From positions 310,001 through 374,000 of the forward strand of contig JAPETS010000018.1 in the NCBI GenBank assembly GCA_026023565.1: DNA of 64,000 nucleotides, written 5' to 3'. The DNA comes from Cirrosporium novae-zelandiae. Taxonomy: Eukaryota. This document shows, piece after piece, positions 9,293-22,005 of the stretch (positions within the stretch are counted from its first letter, which is position 1; the number at the start of each line of letters is the position of its first letter). Under the pieces are notes generated by a model. The model was not told the origin of the DNA. It saw only the letters and a list, made by a program, of their open reading frames with translations, and searched no databases. A program made the position numbers and the translations under genes.

Positions 9293-11248
9293 CTAGCTTC
9301 TGTATGCGGGTGGTGGGGTTGACATTCTGTCCATGACATCACCCCAACCCCATTGTGATTCTCTTGCCTTTGCACCCCCGGGTACTGATGATGCACCTTC
9401 TTCGGTCCTTGTGGACGAAGGATTTCCATTTCTGGCCTTTTCCTTTTCTTCGGCGACTCGTCGGGCCATTTCGCTAGCCATTTTCATCATAAAGGCTTGT
9501 TCGGTGATCGAGACGCCACCACGAGAAGAGTTTAAGAATGGATTAGGTGTTGGTTCGGAGGTATAGGATGGCGGGACAGTAGACGCCGAAGAAGCCGTGC
9601 GGTGCTGGCGATGAGCTTGGCGTGGTGGGGAGAGGAAATATGAGGATTGTGCTTTCTCGGGTAAATGTGGTCGAGGGAACGCTGATGGGTCAACAGAGAC
9701 TGATTGGGGTTCCTGGGCCTGGAAACTGCGTTCCCAATTCTGCATAAAGCTTGGAAATTCCGATTCCTGTATCGTTGGTATTTCTACCGTGGGTAATTCC
9801 TCATCGCCTCCTTTCTCGTTCGAAGCTGTAAACCTACTGTCTATAGGACTCTTCGGGGGTGTTGTAACCTCGCCATTTTCATTCTCGTTCTCTTCTGCGA
9901 TGACGTCATGCTCCACCGACGAAGTCGCATTTTCTGTAGCATTGGAGAAAGTACTATCGCCACTGACACTCATAGTATCCTTTTCACTTTCACCGACATT
10001 GTCGGTAGAACGTAAACGACGTAGGTTGATAGTTCGATTCTTGCGTTTGCGACCACCGTGCGGCTTACCATGCCATCCGGGGTGAAATGAATTTAATGAT
10101 GCGTTTGACAGCGCTGGGCGTGGGGAAGAAGTTGCGCCATCGGAGAATGTATATGTGGTGCTTGTAGCCCCAGAAAGAGATTGTGATCGGGATAATGTAG
10201 GAGGAGATGGTGTTGCAGGTGTTGTTAAGCCTGGACCATCCCCGCGTTCTGCTGCACCGGCCCAAGCACGGTAGATGGCATCACGGATGGAAGGGGTGAA
10301 CAGAGATAGCGTGCTTTGAGAATCTGTGAGGGCGGCGAGACGAAGGAGATTTCTTTGTGAGAATAGAGAATGTGGTTCGGATCCTGCTTCAAGAGAGAAG
10401 GAGTCTGTAGGATCAAGTAAATGTCCGCAGGAGTCGACTGGGTCCGAAGGAGGGGTTGCAAGTGGGTCGATACCCTCTTCCTGGCTGCTTTTCTCCTCTT
10501 CGCGGGCCTGCATTAGGTTTTCTTGCTCCCGATATTCTGGAACCCATAGTCGAAGCGAAAGTCGATGAATAATTCCAGGTAGTTCGTCCATAAAGACGGT
10601 CCGCAGCTGCTTGTCGATGGTTTTCTGTAGGTAGTCGCGGACGAACGGGATGGAATCAAAGGTAGATGAAACTTTGACAGACTCTAGAGGATCATTGCGG
10701 AAGACAAGAGTTATGCCCTTTTGTCTGGAAAAAACTAGGATTATAAAGGCCGATAGCTTGATATTAGAGAGCGTAAGTTGAATCGGGATTGTGAGACCCG
10801 ACCTTCGCATATGGTTAGAAGAGATATTATGCTATCGTTTGATACGACTTACGCTGCTGCCAAAGGTTCTGGAGAAGCAAAGTTGGGCTTGCCGGAGAGG
10901 TAGGTATTGAGGGGATTGAGCTACACATAAAACCAGTCAATCAAAAGCTAGCGATAGCGAACCATCAACAAAATATCTTACCTGAACGCGAGTTTTCAAC
11001 GTCATGTATGCATCTCCATTATAACACATTTTGAAGATACCACGAAAGCGATCTTCGGCCAAATCTCCAATTTCCAAAATCTCCAGGTCCGGTGGTACCG
11101 AACCCAAATTCAGTTCCGTCACCAATATATCATCGACGATAATGGGGGGTTTGGGATATTTATTTAGGGCCCCAGTTAATAGCTCTCTCGCTCGAGTGTA
11201 AAAGGACGAGTCAGCCGTGAGCGGCGACCAATTGAAATTAAAAGCCAT
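9293..11248 (-). CDS. MDM34: Mitochondrial distribution and morphology protein 34 (ERMES complex, SMP domain), 3 exons
   Basis: [10 protein letters not shown]...[43 protein letters not shown] and [28 protein letters not shown] are typical of Mdm34. Introns at 10981-10921 and 10852-10803; C-terminal PPPAY. Confidence 0.95.
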
Positions 11249-12308: not shown

Positions 12309-15300
12309 TCAAGCCAGAGACGGAACGTGTCTCCTTATAATTCCTCTCTCTCTATCCCCACTTCGTTCGGCCATCTTATCTAACTTGACGCTTCTCAACC
12401 CCTGCGCCAGGTCTTCCATCAGACTCAAGCTTCGTCTGTCATCCCCTCTCTCCCCGGTCCGAGCGTTTACACTGGAACTTCCATTTCCCTCTCCGGGTGC
12501 CAACTTTCTTGTCGGAAAACTTGATTTAGTTGGTGGAAAAGGCGGTGAGGACGCCCTCATAAGGAGACGTTCCGGCCTCCCCACCAAGCTTATTTTTTTC
12601 GCTCCCAGGGTTTTCATAATGTCCTCTAGCAGAATCTGCATGGGAATCATGTATGCTAGTGACGTTTCCGGGGACCACCCCAAAACGTGCCCACACAGGT
12701 TTCCCGTTTCATTATCAAAGATCCACGCACCCGAATCCCCAGGGCCTAGAATGGCGTTAGAAAACTGTTGCCAAGATGGGATAAGATATTTCACTCACCG
12801 CCGAAATCCCCGCTGATACACCAACTTGTGGAGAATGACCGTCCAGGCATTTTGATAAGCCTTGTTCCCATTAGAAACCCTTCCTGGACACCACTAGTCC
12901 GCCCACAGCAATGTACTTCCAGCGCATCCAGGTCTCCTAGCCGTAGCATGTCCACCGGATATTGTCCCACGTGACAGAACTTTCCGCCGTCGGGTACACA
13001 GTTATGACCTGACCGACGATCTTCATTGACATCTATGAGCGCCCAATCAACTTCATGCTTGAGACCTTCGCGGTGCAAATGTCGTATGCCCGAGGAGGCA
13101 TGGACAGTGCCGAGAAGGTGGGAGCAAAGGTGATCGGAAGCACGATCCTCAGGGCTAGGGAAAAATGATTCGTGAACATCATCAAGAGCAGGCTGGGTAA
13201 CAAAAAAGGTTTGCGTAGAAAGATCGCTGACACCGGGCGTTTCACCAATAGAAGAGTTGTCATCGTCTGGCTCAGACTCGTCATCTGAGAGATCGAGATC
13301 AGAAAGATCAATATCAGAGAATTGGAAATCTGAATAGGAGGTTGAAGGATTAGTAGATAGACTAGGAGGCGAATCACCGTTTCCTGGAGTTGATTTGTCG
13401 TTCCTATAGAAAGCAGGTAGGTTGATCGGTATGCATTGTGCAGTGGGGTCTTTAGTTCCCGATGCACGGTACTGTCTTGAAAGGTTGATTTCATCTTCTC
13501 CCGCAGACGATTCGGCATCATTTTCATCGTCAGATTCTGGCACCGGTTCCTCCAGCATATGATGGACGGTCATACCCAGAGGCTGTCCGTCAACGAGCAA
13601 CGTTCCGCCGAATGATACTGGGGGATGATGAGCTCCATTCACACAAGCACCAATGGATGCACCACAACTAGGTCGTTCAACGTACGCAGGATTGAGATTC
13701 AGTTCATCTCCGTCATCTAAGATCGGCTGCTTGCACTTCCGATTTTTCCTTTTCTTCCTTGGCGCCATTGAAAAGCGGGCCTTCCCGTCAACAACGATCA
13801 GGTCCCAAATATCTCTGTTTATCTTAAGGTGACGTTCCAGGATTTCTCTAAATACTTCTGTACACTTGCTGCATTCTACTAGTATCGTAGGTCGGGCCGA
13901 ATTTGGTGAGTCTCCGACCATGAATGGTCCAGCGCTACCCGATTCGCATTCGGGGAGTTTGCTGTATAGCCGATCAAGGATGCGTCCGAGACGTCGCATT
14001 AGACATTTATTCCAATCTTCTGATGCCATCTTTGGTAGCCGTGCTCTTGGCCATATCAAGCATTGAGTTGGCTTGGGCTGAACCTTTTCTTCAACCCTGT
14101 TAGCGCTGAATCCGTCGTAAAGCGTCTTGAAAGGTGCGGAAACAGGTGGGGCCTCGGTCCTAGTAATAGGGACTTTTCCTCTGCCGTCATTCGAAAGCTG
14201 GGCTTTTTCTTGTAATTTTTTCGGGCTCAGAGGGGGGAGAGGTTTATCTTCATCAATTGCACAACATTTCTGTAGTCGACATAAAACACTATCATAAAAC
14301 AACGTTTCGAGTCCCTCTAGGGCTGCCATCGAAGCGCTAGATTGGGCATCTCCGTTAGCGGAAATTGCACCCGACAACGAGTCTGCCATGGAAAGGCAGC
14401 ACTGTGCAGCTCGCATATACACACTCCCACATCGGGATGATAATTTCTTGACATAGATATCCTCGATTCGTGACTTGAACATTGCATTGTTGTACTTCAT
14501 TTTCCAGAAACTTTCCAAGGGCATCCAGAGGCCGATTTCCAGGAGAATCAAACCAAAAGTGTAAATGTCATAGGCTTTACGAAAGCAGTAGTTTGATGAT
14601 CTCTTGTCCTGTGGATGTCGATAGATGTTGGGTGCAGCAGGGCCCCTTGAAACAGCATCACCATGAAGATCTGTCGATATAGCAGGCTTCCGGACATAAT
14701 GAGGTTTGTTGCCTGAGGCGTTGGTCGACGAGCCGGATTCATCATCCGGTAATAAAATTATATAGCTACTATCAAATTCTTGGTATCTGTGAGTGGGCCG
14801 AGTTTGATATATAGTAACTCCAACTTCAAAAGCCAAGCGAAAACGGTCTTCAAGGGGAGGAACATGGGAAGAGTCTTCTCTTGAACTCCGTTGGAGCAGG
14901 GTAAGCAGAGACATGTCCTCCAAGGGAGGGGATTTCAAATCTAAACCCTTCCTGGCAAACGTAGATTGCCCGGGATCATAAGGAGGGGGCTCATAAGAAG
15001 GCTGTTCCAGGGGATACTCGGTAAGTCTACTTGATGACTGATCTGGGGTTGGGAAGAAGTAATCCTGTCGTTGTTCAGAGTCCTTACGATGAATTTTTTC
15101 CTCTGGACTTTGGGTCATAAACATCTGTCGTGATCTTGAGAGGTCGTATAATGTGTCGATAGATGCAGTGAGGTCCTTTAGCAGGTCCTCGGCACGTGCA
15201 GTATGAGTTTGACTCCATCTCTCAGCTGAACCAGAAGCCTCGGCAGGGGGGACCTTTTCAGCAGGGGGACATCTTGGGCGCTGCAGATTTTCGGCTTCCA

Positions 15301-15589
15301 ATAATATTTCTTGAATAGAAGCCATAATACTTCCAGCAAGATCGCTTAAACCTGCTTGGTCCAAAGAACTGTCAATATCGCCAGATTCGGACGCGTCACC
15401 CCTGCTCCAATCAAGACCCCATGCAACAACTCGATCTTTCTGAATTCGATACTTGCGTTGCAAAGCCAGGAGTTCTGGATCATCACGGTCCGACAATGGC
15501 GGAGCAACATTCTCGTAGGATGATTTGATATCAGAATATAATTTGGTGAGACCGCGCTGGAGAAAACCTCCTCCACGGACTGCCTCCAT
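12309..15589 (-). CDS. HET-s/LopB (HeLo)-like N-terminus + kinase-like C-lobe + chymotrypsin-like serine protease domain, 2 exons
   Basis: N-terminal helical region (LLALQRKYRIQKDRVVAWGLDWS). Kinase-like segment NIYRHP..AYDIYTFGLILLEIGLWMPL. Protease motifs GMTVHH, VDWALID and GRTSG. Intron 12798-12746 (GTGAGT..CTAAC..TAG) joins DFG to GPGDSGAW. Confidence 0.8.
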
Positions 15590-16356
15590 GTTTAAAATTC
15601 AAAATTAACAATAATAACACAACCAAGTTTGGAATTTGGAAGAAAATCAATTGAACAAGACGAAATAAGTTGGTAGAGGCAGTCTGTTAATGAAGGTAAC
15701 GTTAAAGGTGATGTTAGGCAACGAAATAAGCGGATGGGCAATTTCTGGTGGTTGCTGGTGGTTGAAAATGTTGCTGCCTGTTACTTTTGACAAACCACAG
15801 TAAGGTGGCGAAACAATTAAAATATCACCACCAATTTCTCTGATTTTGTCGGACGACGGAGCAACTATGAAGAATATCTTAAGTATAAATTTTAGGCATG
15901 CGCAATGTAATAATGGTAGCCTTGTCATCAGAATTTGATGAACTGATGTACGTGCAAAGTCCAATCCATTGAGTCTAAGCCATGATTGTCATCATTGTTA
16001 CCTCGGCACCTTGTCACTTAGTTCTAGGCTTTGACAATGCCCCAATGACATGTGGAACACCAGCCACACCAGCCATCAGCCACATTAGCCCCGGCCAAAT
16101 GTAGTATGGGTTTATATGGACTATTATTATCATTTGAATACCAGTTCATTCTCCACAAGCATCTCAATGAACAATGACTTAAACCTAAATGCTTTGGCTA
16201 GAGAAGAAGATCGAAAATAATTTACACTAGAAATTAAGATTAAAATCACTGCATGACCAATGCAAAAATCATGCACTTTCACAACAGCTTTTTACATCTT
16301 AACTATGTAAATCCAGGAGGCCGTAGCATTATACACCGCTTCCAGTAAGCATCCTT

Positions 16357-17895
16357 TTAGCCTCTCCTTGTCATTCTCTTCTCCCTTCTCTTTTGATCTC
16401 TTTCCTTTTCCTTCTCTAGAAATCTTCTTTGCTCATCAGCATTCATTGTTCTAAGTTTCTTCTCACGTTCATCGCGTTTCTTCTTTTCCGCTTCTACTCT
16501 ACGTTCTTCCTCTCTTTCTTCTGCATCAAGGCGTTCGAGCTTATGTTTCTCGGTTGCTCGGGCATTTTGAAGTTTACGGTGGACTTCTGGGCGAAGCGAG
16601 CGAGAGAGAGGTGCTAGCATGTCAGGAATTTGGAGGAATGCCTTGAACACGGGAGAAGGAGGTGCCGAAGGAGAGGAAAGGATCATAGAAAGGTGGATTG
16701 ATCGTGGAGGGTTGCTGAGTTCGTTCAATCTGTTATGCCGATGCGGTTAGCCAAATACAGCAACTAGACGAGAAACTAGGCAGCATTGATTGATGGAGGA
16801 GGTGACGCTCACTTGGTTGGTTTGTCTGCTGGTTGGTCCGAGACAAGAAGATATTCAAAAGTCTCGGGCCCCGCCTCTGTAACAGCACTGGCCAACTCTG
16901 GGGTCAGCAGACGATCCGTGATTTCGGCGCTTTCGCTCATTATAGTCGCCCAGGCAGGCAGCTTCGAATGGTCCTTTGTCGCCGTCAAAGAAACGTCATA
17001 ACGCTCGTCGCGTAAGAATCGCATGCAATCCTTGTTGACAACTGCCCAAACGAAACCCTCATAGGATGAATTGGGGATACCACCTGCCTTTGCAGCGCGA
17101 GCCTCAAGAGCCTCTTGCCCCAACTTACCGCCGCCTAGAACAGGGACAAGGTCTTTTTCCTTTCCAGAGAACGGGTATATGGTCGCAACCATGCGCTCAG
17201 TGGGTGGAGAGATGGAATCAAACAGACCACCCAAAGCAAATTGGCCAATAACAGCAAAAGGGTTGGCACGATTATAAAAGGAGAGTTTAATATCTAAGAA
17301 TGCCACATTTAACCGGCCAGTCGCATAACCGATGAACTCGGAAGTAGAGTTTTGTTTAAGCAATTGATCCGGCTTTGGAATAGCGTCAGGTTCAGGTTCA
17401 GAGTCATTGGTGGGTGATACCTGGGGACGAGAACCAAAACCAACAAGGGCAAACTGGGAGGAGAGAAGGGGATAATGGGACGATATCCATGCTCTAGCTT
17501 TCGACCGATTCGTGCGCGAGCCGTATAAATAAAGGAGGAGAACGATGAGAATTAGCGGGATAGCTATGAGCTCAACAAGAAAGTCACTGGGTTTTGCACG
17601 CTCCCAGACGCGATACCATTTGGTATAGAGAACCGGAGGAAGGGTATTTGCGCCAGGAGTAGGGCTACTGGCTAGAGAGCTTGTGACGGCAGAGGCAACT
17701 GGGGAAATGGATGCTGGAGAAGGATCCGGTGCTCCAGCGAAATCGGCAAAATCTGGGAAAATTCAGTATCCTATAATGCAGCAATTGGGATGAGACAATG
17801 AATAAGATAAGGAATGGCCTACCATCATCGAGGGGAACTTGAGCCGAGGGGTTTGCAGAGCCACCTCCAAACAAGTTTTTGAGCACATCTCCCAT
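16357..17895 (-). CDS. DUF1682 / CCDC47-like ER membrane protein (PAT complex subunit), 3 exons
   Basis: N-terminal TM segment, then EFIGYATGR, FVWAVVNK..MRFLRDERYDVSLT and IMSESAEIT. C-terminal charged coiled coil (EQRRFLEKEKERDQKR). Introns near 17822-17753 and 16812-16730. Confidence 0.85.
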
Positions 17896-19003: not shown

Positions 19004-19380
19004 TGTTAATTGATAGCTATCCGAAGTTTGCAAAAGGGTCACAGGGAAGCTGGAGGTTTATGAGAGGAGATGTTCAATGGGTCAGTTAAGATGGTAGAGT
19101 TGAGAGCTGTTGATGAAGAGAGAAGCTGAGCCGGAACCATCATGCCATAAATCGCCGAACACGGCGCTTGAGTTTTTTAATCGCGCGGTTGTCGCTTATT
19201 GGAGATGAAGTTTTGGAAAGATTTCGAAGCTTGAGTAAGTTTATTGTTACTTTTCTACCTCTCAATGACTTTATGGATTTCTCCAACATAAGGTAATTTA
19301 TGATGTTTTAATAAGCATGATTTTCGCAGGATATTTTTCTTCCCTTCACCCTTCACTCTACTCCTCACATCCTCCACCGG

Positions 19381-22005
19381 ATGCCCTCTGCTTTACAAAC
19401 CCTTCTTTCGAGATCTCCCACTCTTAAACTCTTGAAAGGAATTATAGTCTCAGATAATTACGCTTCCATCTCGCAGCGCGATTTATACCCTCCAGTATGC
19501 ACCGATTGCTTCCAGCAAATTTTCATTCGTTCTTATTCTCGAGATTCCAAACCTCGACGCTATGATCTAAGCTTCAAAGACTCGGCCGACTCTCAAAAGG
19601 AATTGAACCATTTACTCGAATACACAGACAAGAAGAAGGTCGAAAAGCCGTCAGGGGAAAAAAATGTGCTTGATGGGCCAACATTCCAGGATGCAGCAAC
19701 CATTGGTGGCCAATTCCCAAAGTCTTATGCGTCGACATCCCCGAAGGTGAAGATAAAACAGCCACCCCCAACAAAACCATTAATTAGGAAACAATACAAT
19801 GACTCTTTTTCTGGGCGACGCAAAAGTTTTAATATCGAAGAGAAGGTGTCAAAAAGAGAGAGACGTAAAGATCCTCTAGCAACCAAGGCATTGACATTCA
19901 ATGAGCTTCAATATGAATCTGATCTCGGGAGGAAGTCTGCGCCCGGTAAAAAGCTTGTGGATGGCCCCGATCGTTGTACAGATTGGGAATTGTGGATTCG
20001 ACTCTTAAACTTCCGTCGTCGAACCTATGGTGTATCAGGTGTCGGCGATATTTGGGACGGAATATATAAAAGGCAAGATAAATTTGTGTTGCCTACCGAA
20101 GGACCGCAGGCGGATGCTCTATGGGGAGCTCTCATTGAGGCTGGATTCGAAAACGAGCATCTTCTAAACGTTGTATGCGAATATGCCCTAAAACTAGAAC
20201 GACTTGAGGGCAGAAAGTGGCAGCAGCTATATGTAAAAGTGATTGGTCATTTCATACAACAGCGTAACGGGCATGCTTATAATTGGCATAAATTGCTAAC
20301 CCGCTTGAACCCTCCTAGCCTGGATGAAGTACGTTGTGTGCTCAAGAATGGAATTTTTTGCATGGAAGGTGGATCACAGTTCCAAATGATCTATGAAGAC
20401 CTTGGTTATCGAAATCTATATAATTTAATCATCCCACAGCTTTGCCATCAAGGAAGACTTCTTGAGGCAGCCACCTGGCACTCTTATCTCATGAATCACA
20501 ACGATACACCATCAGACTTTAAGGTTACAGAGCCTCTGTTAAGGCACCTGAAGCGAACGAAGCAATCCTTTCGCTTACAGGAGGTTTCAACGGAAATGGT
20601 CGCGGCCGGAATTCCTTTGATTTCTCAGGATTCCTCTGTCCATCATGAAGGTATTATGTCTCGCGAATTCATGAACCTAACAATGGGACAAGCTCGTGGT
20701 ATAGCACCAAAAACTATAAACGATGAGACCTATGCAAGGTTCTTCGCAACACGCTCTATTCCAGTAAATTATATTATATCAGGCCTGAAGCTCCTTGGAG
20801 TTGAAGAGCTCGGCCCAATCACCTTGAGGGAGCTTGTCTTGAGGGAAGAGAATGTAAAAAGCATCACCGAACGGCTTACGCAGTTTGAAAACAAAGGGAT
20901 CTCCATTGGGACATCAACATATGCTCGCGTAATTCGACAGTTGGCGTTTGAGGGAAGAGCTGATTTGCTCCAAAACTTACTGGACTCTGATTTGCATCCA
21001 GATGCTTTTGATGATTGGAAGCTCCAAGAGAAGCTTCTTGCATCCTACCTGAAGACCAAGGATCTATTACAATTTGGTCGCACTATGGCCATTCTGCTCG
21101 TAGATTCATCGACCGACAACAAGATAATGGAAACTTGGAATCTACGGCTCCGAGCACAACTGAATGCGGGATACTTCCCCCTAGCAATCGGGACCATTGA
21201 AGAGATGCATCAAAAGCGCATCACGGTGACCCAAAAGTCTTGTATCCGCATGTTCTGGACATTACTTAGACATCGAAATCCTGGCCGGCGGCCTTCGGCT
21301 ACTCGAATTGAAACAGATGATTTAAGATTGTTAATAACGATCTGGAAGAGGGCTGTGGAGAATGGCACCCACTTGATACCCACGGCATGGAAAGAGGCTA
21401 TCCGCCGTCTTGGGATGTTGGGTCGATTTCAGGAACTTGAAAGCCTATGTTTCTGGTTGACGGCTTGGTATGGCCATGACCCATTGAAAGCCATATTTAC
21501 CCCGGCGTTACAGCAAGCGATTGTCCACTGGTACTTTAAGCGAAAAATTAACCTACGGGGTTTGAGGGCGGAAAGAAGCCTCAGCCAAGGCAATAAAAAG
21601 CCACTTCATATCCCTTGGACGCTTGGGTTCGCTTTTCTGAGAAAGCTCGAACAGCGAGGAGTTGATCTTGATACCGTAACCATCGAACGAGCTTTTCGTA
21701 ACCGTCTTCGAATCTTATTCGGTCCTGCTTTCTCTGCGATCCCTAGGAATCGAGCCTTACAAAAACACAACCCTTATACGATAGAAGAGGTCGCGTGTGA
21801 CGCTAATCGGGCCTGGAACGCACCTTTGCATTACGACAAAGATGAGCTTTTCTGGCTCTACCCCAGATACCCGAGTGGTGAGCATAGAGATGTCAAAATG
21901 CAAAAGTATCATGACTTGAGTTTGAGAGTGAGGCGTGCGTATAAGGGACGGCGTGTGATACTGAGGAAGACGGATTCACAATGGGGCCAACGTGAACATG
22001 AGTAG
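19381..22005 (+). CDS. Mitochondrial pentatricopeptide-repeat-like protein
   Basis: Uninterrupted 874-aa ORF with a basic/hydroxylated N-terminus. Helical-repeat character and segments recalled from fungal PPR proteins (LLDSDLHPDAFDD, W+EAIRRLGMLGR.ELE.L). Confidence 0.7.
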   Translation: MPSALQTLLSRSPTLKLLKGIIVSDNYASISQRDLYPPVCTDCFQQIFIRSYSRDSKPRRYDLSFKDSADSQKELNHLLEYTDKKKVEKPSGEKNVLDGPTFQDAATIGGQFPKSYASTSPKVKIKQPPPTKPLIRKQYNDSFSGRRKSFNIEEKVSKRERRKDPLATKALTFNELQYESDLGRKSAPGKKLVDGPDRCTDWELWIRLLNFRRRTYGVSGVGDIWDGIYKRQDKFVLPTEGPQADALWGALIEAGFENEHLLNVVCEYALKLERLEGRKWQQLYVKVIGHFIQQRNGHAYNWHKLLTRLNPPSLDEVRCVLKNGIFCMEGGSQFQMIYEDLGYRNLYNLIIPQLCHQGRLLEAATWHSYLMNHNDTPSDFKVTEPLLRHLKRTKQSFRLQEVSTEMVAAGIPLISQDSSVHHEGIMSREFMNLTMGQARGIAPKTINDETYARFFATRSIPVNYIISGLKLLGVEELGPITLRELVLREENVKSITERLTQFENKGISIGTSTYARVIRQLAFEGRADLLQNLLDSDLHPDAFDDWKLQEKLLASYLKTKDLLQFGRTMAILLVDSSTDNKIMETWNLRLRAQLNAGYFPLAIGTIEEMHQKRITVTQKSCIRMFWTLLRHRNPGRRPSATRIETDDLRLLITIWKRAVENGTHLIPTAWKEAIRRLGMLGRFQELESLCFWLTAWYGHDPLKAIFTPALQQAIVHWYFKRKINLRGLRAERSLSQGNKKPLHIPWTLGFAFLRKLEQRGVDLDTVTIERAFRNRLRILFGPAFSAIPRNRALQKHNPYTIEEVACDANRAWNAPLHYDKDELFWLYPRYPSGEHRDVKMQKYHDLSLRVRRAYKGRRVILRKTDSQWGQREHE

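Follow-up and report, generated by a model that had tools for sequence, protein, structure and literature searches.

A predicted sltB orthologue with a shortened pseudokinase in Cirrosporium novae-zelandiae, and a revised domain map of SltB

The window, a 64,000-nucleotide (nt) stretch of Cirrosporium novae-zelandiae DNA (contig JAPETS010000018.1, positions 310,001 to 374,000), contains an sltB-like gene on the minus strand, with the ATG at 15589 and the stop codon at 12311-12309. By sequence comparison it is orthologous to sltB (AN6132) of Aspergillus nidulans. It very probably encodes a working SltB that cleaves itself at about amino acids (aa) 495-526, has a HeLo-like bundle and a pseudokinase C-lobe as prodomain or scaffold, activates SltA, a transcription factor of cation and alkali tolerance, and is subject to feedback at its promoter. 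The first-pass annotation of this DNA had proposed a one-gene cell-death or immune switch. A new death switch does not stand: the gene belongs to a two-gene pathway that has been published. The novelty lies in a variant without the pseudokinase N-lobe and in a better map of the SltB domains.

The gene has two exons. Exon 1 (12799..15589, 2791 nt) encodes aa 1-930 and contributes one further base, a phase-1 intron of 53 nt (12746..12798) lies just upstream of the nucleophile motif, and exon 2 (12309..12745) encodes the GDSGAW motif, the end of the protease, a disordered tail and the stop. The intron has a GTGAGT donor, a CTAAC branch motif 15 nt from its end and a TAG acceptor, and its removal creates a frame of 1075 aa with no internal stops. 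The spliced product is 100% identical to the database protein P0001 (1075 aa, labelled as a hypothetical protein of C. novae-zelandiae), which has the identical splice. Among the related loci compared, 14 others have an intron at the matching point, three more have an acceptor but no donor by the search pattern, and 37 have no acceptor there. cDNA evidence confirms the only sltB intron of A. nidulans, which sits at the equivalent codon (PMC4557415, section 3.4). Judged by comparison with the other loci, the intron is real, and the earlier proposal that it joins the nucleophile motif to the rest of the protein is correct. A second GT is situated 4 nt inside the donor (12798-12791, minus strand), and its use would yield a product of 941 aa that lacks the catalytic Ser. 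An alternative +4 donor of this intron is used in four Aspergilli (PMC4557415). GT at +4 is present in 5 of the 15 introns examined, and ordinary donors commonly have GT there too.

Several lines of evidence support orthology. BLASTP aligned P0001 with SltB over aa 217-1003 (E 3e-131) and aa 6-155 (E 2e-37). When SltB was used as the query against the genome, the window gene was the top match (E 2.7e-110), and six further loci matched no more than the pseudokinase (E no better than 3e-14). The window protein as the query, with only the best candidates scored, retrieved one full-length copy. The two proteins are reciprocal best matches and share the whole architecture (PMC4557415, PMC4985261), being 46% identical in the N-terminal bundle and 50-66% identical across the parts of the protease; they also have in common the nucleophile Ser, the intron position, the sltA partner and the promoter AGGCA sites. 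The mutated SltB sites Ser1142, Phe1126, Gly1156, Glu743, Tyr568, Asn544, Thr972 and His1033 are all identical in the window protein, and so are Asp1036, Gly1140 and Trp722. The suppressor site Glu743 corresponds to Glu549 and is kept in 63 of 66 aligned rows. Domain by domain, the identity to SltB comes close to the average of the family. A quick tree of 70 rows places the window protein on a long branch (1.17) at the base of the clade containing SltB, with a Shimodaira-Hasegawa approximate likelihood-ratio test (SH-aLRT) value of 93. The differences are in length (1272 aa in SltB, 1075 aa here) and in the kinase-like region: some 100 aa of the pseudokinase N-lobe are absent from the window protein, and its HGNINS loop is degenerate.

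The family is large. A homologue search with the window protein yielded 467 matches among 8000 candidates, and the best 120, mostly from Eurotiomycetes, were aligned; a Podospora query yielded 416 matches among 7999 candidates, and those of its 120 listed matches that bear a name are Sordariomycetes. Additional members come from several lichen-related classes. A cluster look-up names AN6132 ('protein sltB' of A. nidulans), NCU07513 and Pa_7_4390 as members, and many members carry the database label 'HET-s/LopB domain protein', as had been anticipated. The motifs noted in the first pass are all in place: YRHP at aa 323, YDIYTFGLILLEIGLW at aa 340, TVHH at aa 674, DWAL at aa 848 and GDSGAW at aa 933. 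P202, Y204, H676, H677 and D848 are kept in 120/120 listed relatives. The Ser935 column contains Ser in 77 of these and is gapped in 43; of the gapped proteins two were inspected, and both turned out to be reading frames of the first exon that run only as far as the intron. Of 150 cluster representatives, 63 near-full-length proteins were retained as a more diverse set; in this set His676 and Asp848 are each present in 62 and Ser935 in 51 (11 gaps, 1 Asn). The conserved His, Asp and Ser columns among the 120 listed relatives argue that the motifs of the window gene are not due to chance.

The first pass knew of no described mechanism. However, the A. nidulans member is named sltB and its mechanism of SltA activation has been published (PMC4985261). 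SltA is a zinc-finger factor for cation and alkali tolerance, activated by SltB cleavage. SltB is cut in vivo near residue 692, a position given as an estimate, into a pseudokinase half and a protease half. The Ser1142Ala substitution stops both this autocleavage and the cleavage of SltA from 78 to 32 kDa; thus the autocleavage guessed from the C. novae-zelandiae sequence has been demonstrated in the orthologue. Cleavage is mainly intramolecular and is constitutive in growing, healthy mycelium. The protease half by itself is inactive, the N-terminal half being required. All tagged forms, including an N-terminal green fluorescent protein (GFP) fusion, are cytoplasmic with zero membrane association, and the fragments 1-477 and 1-590 have a null phenotype and are not reported as toxic. 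Loss of SltB rescues growth of strains null for vps genes of the endosomal sorting complexes required for transport (ESCRT), and loss of sltA also removes the SltB protein. The sltB57 mutation, located in the C-lobe, rescues vps-null strains without altering cleavage or salt tolerance, and sltB56, a stop downstream of the HeLo-like domain, rescues the vps20 deletion (all PMC4985261). Suppression of vps deletions by sltB alleles and co-occurrence of sltA and sltB throughout Pezizomycotina are also described in PMC4557415, and the two-domain picture of SltB was restated in 2024 (PMC11011638). The N-terminal half is termed 'enigmatic' by the authors, who left the catalytic His unfixed.

The partner gene is present in the same genome. 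An sltA/ace1 gene encoding the three-finger protein P0505 was found at G000:C52 near 607000 (605503-608535, locus L097). A first zinc-finger pattern had zero matches in the genome, and a second one located the gene. Several relatives of P0505 are named 'ace1' in database records, and Ace1 is the SltA homologue (PMC4985261); A. nidulans SltA itself is absent among the P0505 matches listed. P0505 has a conserved helical N-terminal region (approximately aa 240-375) and a conserved MARRKK stretch preceding the zinc fingers, near the proposed SltA cleavage zone. A complex prediction for aa 12-450 of the window protein with SltA aa 235-470, run without alignments, had a score of 0.00, which speaks neither for nor against an interaction. 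Several sltA/ace1 records are mislabelled 'copper-binding transcription factor' in public databases.

SltA binds AGGCA and drives sltB in A. nidulans (PMC4985261). Four predicted SltA-type AGGCA sites, found by sequence match, lie within 310 nt of the ATG, at 15677, 15716 and 15894 on the plus strand and at 15775 on the minus strand (span 15677..15898). This is 4 versus 0.59 expected in the 400 nt upstream, and 3 of 1000 samples were as high, the 400-nt span having been picked post hoc. In 33 of the 79 related loci, those with a callable start and 1500 nt upstream, the 700 nt upstream contain 127 AGGCA sites versus 53 expected, and 31 of the 33 exceed expectation. The following points count against promoter feedback. 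Over 700 nt the window gene has 4 sites versus 1.44 expected, with 68 of 1000 samples as high, which is not significant. The next 700 nt further upstream of the same 33 relatives, taken as a control, also hold 75 sites, and several of the 33 promoters belong to close relatives.

All protein features described below are on the minus strand. The probable autocleavage zone, approximately aa 495-526 (14012..14107), is placed by analogy with SltB residues 692-722, the alignment being anchored by K703 (K506 here) and W722 (W526). It is followed by an alpha/beta domain, aa 519-605 (13775..14035), which the first pass had missed and which matches the fold of rice NARROW LEAF 1 (NAL1) from residue 90; the ATP-binding domain of NAL1 comprises residues 89-172 (PMC12012508). 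The protease starts with aa 640-679 (13553..13672), containing the GASIG and TVHH motifs and His677 (codon 13561-13559), and continues with aa 782-985 (12582..13246), a part that spans the intron and is 50% identical to SltB. It contains Asp848 (codon 13048-13046; SltB D1036) and the nucleophile Ser935 (codon 12734-12732; SltB S1142). The two parts are separated by an acidic, Ser-rich, disordered stretch, aa 680-781 (13247..13552), with a mean identity of 20%. This stretch had been taken for an inter-domain linker, which is rejected, as it is an insertion inside the protease, between the His and the Asp.

The C-terminal module was modelled from an intron-less relative, with a predicted local distance difference test (pLDDT) score of 80.6 and a predicted template modelling (pTM) score of 0.79. 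The top fold match of this model is NAL1, including both the alpha/beta domain and the protease (Z 22.6, root-mean-square deviation (rmsd) 4.2, 290 residues aligned; Foldseek E 1.6e-9). The next matches other than NAL1 are bacterial alpha-lytic-type proteases, in the protease part only (Z 18.0). NAL1 is also the top match of the window protein's own model (Z 14.0, rmsd 4.8, 267 aligned). Sequence-profile searches of solved structures reached neither NAL1 nor any protease. Judging from the models, the released C-terminal half is the whole NAL1-like module, since the NAL1 match begins just downstream of the SltB cut zone. In NAL1 (PDB 7y77, 8pn2) an alpha/beta domain likewise precedes a chymotrypsin-fold protease with a tandem His-His, and its substrates are transcription regulators (PMC12012508). 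On the other hand, identity is 14-18%, and NAL1 lacks a HeLo-like or pseudokinase half, having instead a short N-terminal domain, a hexameric cage and ATP binding (PMC12012508).

The published candidates for the catalytic His of SltB are His925, His1008 and His1033, and only residues 900-1192 were modelled (PMC4985261, PMC4557415). Alignment of the bacterial chymotrypsin-fold proteases starts at the GASIG motif, upstream of TVHH. His874 of SltB, which corresponds to His677, is kept in 65 of 66 rows; two paralogous proteases of the same genome retain only the second His of the pair, and in NAL1 the catalytic His is the second of a His-His pair, H234 (PMC12012508). Among the published candidates, His925 is rejected as not conserved in the 66 rows and His1033 as kept in 58 of them. 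His820 (SltB His1008) is conserved equally with His677 (65/66), which speaks against the TVHH assignment. Still, sequence and models suggest that the catalytic His is probably His677 of the TVHH motif. If His874 is catalytic in SltB, this would explain the only partial loss of function in His1033Ala. The serine protease recognized in the first pass thus has conserved residues and, by model, a chymotrypsin fold, with His677-Asp848-Ser935 as the probable triad.

Autoprocessing chymotrypsin-like zymogens with a large prodomain that cleave zinc-finger transcription factors are also known in budding yeast, where Ssy5 (peptidase S64) is of this type (PMC4985261). However, P0001 has no match to peptidase S64 (PF08192), 8 of 20 relatives match it weakly (best E 0.0079), and a Pfam S64 search of the genome, run without a positive control, had zero matches. 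Ssy5 also has another prodomain, signal and substrates, and the SltB authors found no evidence for orthology of Ssy5 and SltB (PMC4985261).

The N-terminal half begins with a HeLo-like helical bundle, aa 14-158 (15116..15550). The Pfam HeLo score of the window protein, 15.2 bits, is below the cut-off (23.2), as is that of SltB (22.5), whereas the orthologues from N. crassa (33) and P. anserina (29.2) are above it; this upholds the HeLo-like N-terminus suggested initially. Pfam HeLo matches 20 of 20 aligned relatives (best E 1.9e-9), with the match beginning at profile position 24-36. In an atlas lookup of aa 1-165 the first match was a HeLo cluster (score 0.91, 147 shared features), which is a lead only. 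The predicted model has four long helices at the N-terminus. Its aa 16-441 align with full-length MLKL (Z 13.6, 270 aligned), but with an rmsd of 22.8 in a low-confidence model, and helical fold matches near Z 13 may be generic. HET-S is absent among the fold matches listed, which does not rule out likeness.

The first helix of HET-S targets the membrane (PMC12881547). In the window protein the first-helix hydropathy is 0.02, and the SltB family maximum is 0.75-0.82. The top 19-residue hydropathy in the family, available for 62 of 70 rows, has a maximum of 0.75 and a median of -0.13; in the six HeLo paralogues of the genome it is 1.57-2.06 in four and 1.01 and 0.44 in the other two. By sequence, the SltB family is without the hydrophobic first helix typical of most HeLo proteins, although the contrast with the paralogues is not absolute. 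MLKL itself works without a hydrophobic first helix, so that a membrane action of SltB keeps a small probability. As in MLKL and the fungal HeLo/HELL-pseudokinase proteins, the helical bundle in the low-confidence model of the window protein is followed by a pseudokinase. The window protein differs from MLKL and HET-S in the first helix, the sub-threshold Pfam HeLo score and the fused protease, and its orthologue SltB is cytoplasmic, with no toxicity reported after cleavage (PMC4985261).

Downstream of the bundle there is a PY-type motif, PPPY, at aa 201-204 (14978..14989; aa 283-286 of SltB). A [PL]PxY motif is found in 54 of 63 diverse relatives. PPxY motifs bind Nedd4/Rsp5-type ubiquitin ligases, which have WW domains. 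SltB has been reported to be ubiquitinated (PMC4985261).

The site of the absent pseudokinase N-lobe (14915..14977) encodes 20 aa, compared with 113-121 aa in 116 of 120 relatives. The reading frame is continuous over this site, so the shortening is not an intron miscall. Three other proteins (P0068, P0104, P0110) are also short, with 11 aa separating the C-lobe from the PY motif. As these form their own clade, apart from the window protein in the quick tree, the comparison suggests that the N-lobe was lost twice, separately; P0239 in the diverse set is one more short case. The two-lobed pseudokinase (SltB 325-589) is usual in orthologues but is not defining, and its loss is a variant trait.

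The C-lobe, aa 226-446 (14252..14914), is degenerate at the catalytic-loop position, and its model matches the rat MLKL pseudokinase (Z 13.6, rmsd 3.2, 157 aligned). The description of a truncated kinase-like C-lobe is thus borne out, with a fold matching kinase C-lobes and an N-lobe reduced to 20 aa. As also noted initially, HRD and a Gly-loop are absent from the 1075-aa protein. Its sole DFG (aa 928) falls within the protease. A kinase-like domain without VAIK, HRD and DFG fits the definition of SltB (PMC4557415), and an active kinase is rejected. The terms 'HeLo' and 'HET-s' occur in the main text of neither PMC4557415 nor PMC4985261, and 'MLKL', 'NAL1', 'PPxY' and 'cell death' are absent from the main text of PMC4985261. 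No published link of the SltB family to HeLo, HET-s/LopB or NAL1 was found in the searched literature, which excludes most subscription journals, and no relevant paper on NCU07513 or Pa_7_4390 was among the 40 listed out of 5921.

The data best fit the following mechanism. The sltB orthologue would produce a cytoplasmic zymogen with a chymotrypsin-fold serine protease, which would cut its own chain once, at about aa 495-526. The N-terminal product would be a prodomain with the HeLo-like bundle, the PPxY motif and the pseudokinase C-lobe, and the C-terminal product would be the NAL1-like module. The processed protease would then strip the N-terminal part off SltA/Ace1, whose C-terminal part would enter the nucleus, turn on cation and alkaline-pH tolerance genes and feed back on the sltB promoter via the AGGCA sites. 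In this scheme the gene structure, orthology, triad conservation, folds, sltA presence and promoter sites come from the present analysis. Autocleavage, its Ser1142 dependence, SltA cleavage, the requirement for the N-terminal half, the cytoplasmic location and the feedback are carried over by analogy from A. nidulans only (PMC4985261). The HeLo-like bundle and C-lobe would be a folding aid or scaffold, not a pore, and the pseudokinase N-lobe would be dispensable. The PPxY motif may recruit a Nedd4/Rsp5-type ligase to clear the prodomain, in analogy to prodomain degradation in yeast Ssy5. The N-terminal half may stem from a gene for a HeLo-pseudokinase protein, which became joined to a NAL1-like protease and was recruited for signalling.

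Some observations weigh against a working SltB of this type. Function is known from A. nidulans only, the C. novae-zelandiae gene being known from sequence. Approximately 100 aa of the pseudokinase N-lobe are lacking and the catalytic-loop region is degenerate, while the N-terminal half, incomplete here, is required in A. nidulans SltB (PMC4985261). Of the 63 diverse relatives, 9 lack the PPxY motif, the Podospora orthologue among them. The full-length model is of low quality (pLDDT 52.5, pTM 0.38), and the clade placement comes from the quick tree.

One possibility, which we consider improbable, is that SltB is a tamed MLKL-like protein whose released half acts on membranes and is cleared via PPxY ubiquitination and ESCRT, the C-terminal half being a NAL1-like assembly with possible ATP-Mg sensing. 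A membrane-acting released half would explain why loss of SltB or SltA rescues ESCRT-null strains and why sltB57 does so without a change in SltA cleavage.

To a similarly small extent, the gene may be a decaying or deregulated sltB, in which the loss of the N-lobe inactivated the zymogen or freed it from control. The missing N-lobe, the degenerate catalytic loop, the long branch in the quick tree and the need for the pseudokinase half in A. nidulans (PMC4985261) are consistent with this. However, the frame is open, the intron is intact, all protease residues are kept, domain identities to SltB are near the family mean, and the promoter sites and sltA are present. Moreover, the like loss in the clade of P0068, P0104 and P0110 suggests that it is tolerated.

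The cell-death switch, in which autocleavage would free the HeLo-like domain to permeabilise membranes, is less probable still. Its attraction lies in the HeLo-like N-terminus, the alignment with full-length MLKL (poor as its rmsd is), the treatment of HeLo/HELL-pseudokinase proteins as MLKL-like (PMC12881547) and the fact that autocleavage does part the two halves of SltB; the unexplained vps suppression by sltB loss and the sltB57 rescue without change in cleavage may also be cited (PMC4985261). However, SltB serves to activate SltA, it is cleaved constitutively in mycelium that is healthy, and tagged forms are cytoplasmic, although the double-tagged fusion with N-terminal GFP is non-functional. 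Fragments 1-477 and 1-590 are null with toxicity unreported, and sltB56, which still encodes the HeLo-like part, itself rescues the vps20 deletion (PMC4985261). The first helix is not hydrophobic, the neighbours are housekeeping genes, and a single full-length copy with slow, tree-like conservation across classes is unlike the variable fungal immune clusters.

Finally, an assembly error that removed the N-lobe from an ordinary full-length sltB is highly unlikely. In its favour, the record carries the label of a metagenome-assembled genome and the assembly is redundant, with two contigs carrying identical HeLo matches at near-identical places. But the frame is open through the site, degeneracy extends to the catalytic-loop residues on its flank, which a real loss would produce, and a similar deletion occurs in other species.

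For the Slt pathway, the results provide four assignments: His874 as the probable catalytic His of SltB, a NAL1-like module starting at the mapped cut and, within the prodomain, a HeLo-like bundle as well as a PY motif. The natural deletion suggests that the pseudokinase N-lobe can be spared, and the fold links a fungal with a plant protease that cuts transcription factors. The analysis also suggests that an immune-type HeLo-pseudokinase was diverted to stress signalling early in filamentous ascomycetes.

The flanking genes, at 9293-11245 (minus), 16357-17762 (minus) and 19321-22005 (plus), are of housekeeping type. The upstream neighbour of the sltB orthologue is a CCDC47 homologue (Pfam E 4.8e-70), the downstream one, which has no Pfam match, is presumably MDM34, and the third is a weak pentatricopeptide repeat (PPR)-like open reading frame (ORF). 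None of the 79 related loci, 32 of which extend over at least 15 kb, carries the flanking genes of the window, and thus there is no conserved partner cluster by this synteny test; the exception is an ORF 20 kb away that matches four loci.

Other loci of the genome contain separate parts of this architecture. Stand-alone HeLo or HeLo-like pseudokinase genes without a protease, of MLKL-like architecture, were found at L090 (G000:C23), L092 (G000:C119) and L096 (G000:C37); with their more hydrophobic first helix they are better candidate death effectors than the window gene. Two protease-like genes, L094 (G000:C66:70500-75500, minus) and L095 (G000:C41:1447500-1452500, plus), are built like the window protease, with the His motif, the acidic insertion, DWAL and a frame break just upstream of the nucleophile motif. 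They contain GDCG, with Cys replacing the SltB Ser, and no HeLo or pseudokinase half was seen in them; L094 runs on into a stretch rich in Cys and His, possibly a zinc finger. According to PMC4557415, relatives consisting of the protease alone were not found. Identical HeLo matches occur at G000:C35:340429-341010 and G000:C47:340428-341009, and a zinc-finger match is likewise shared, pointing to duplicated contigs in the assembly.

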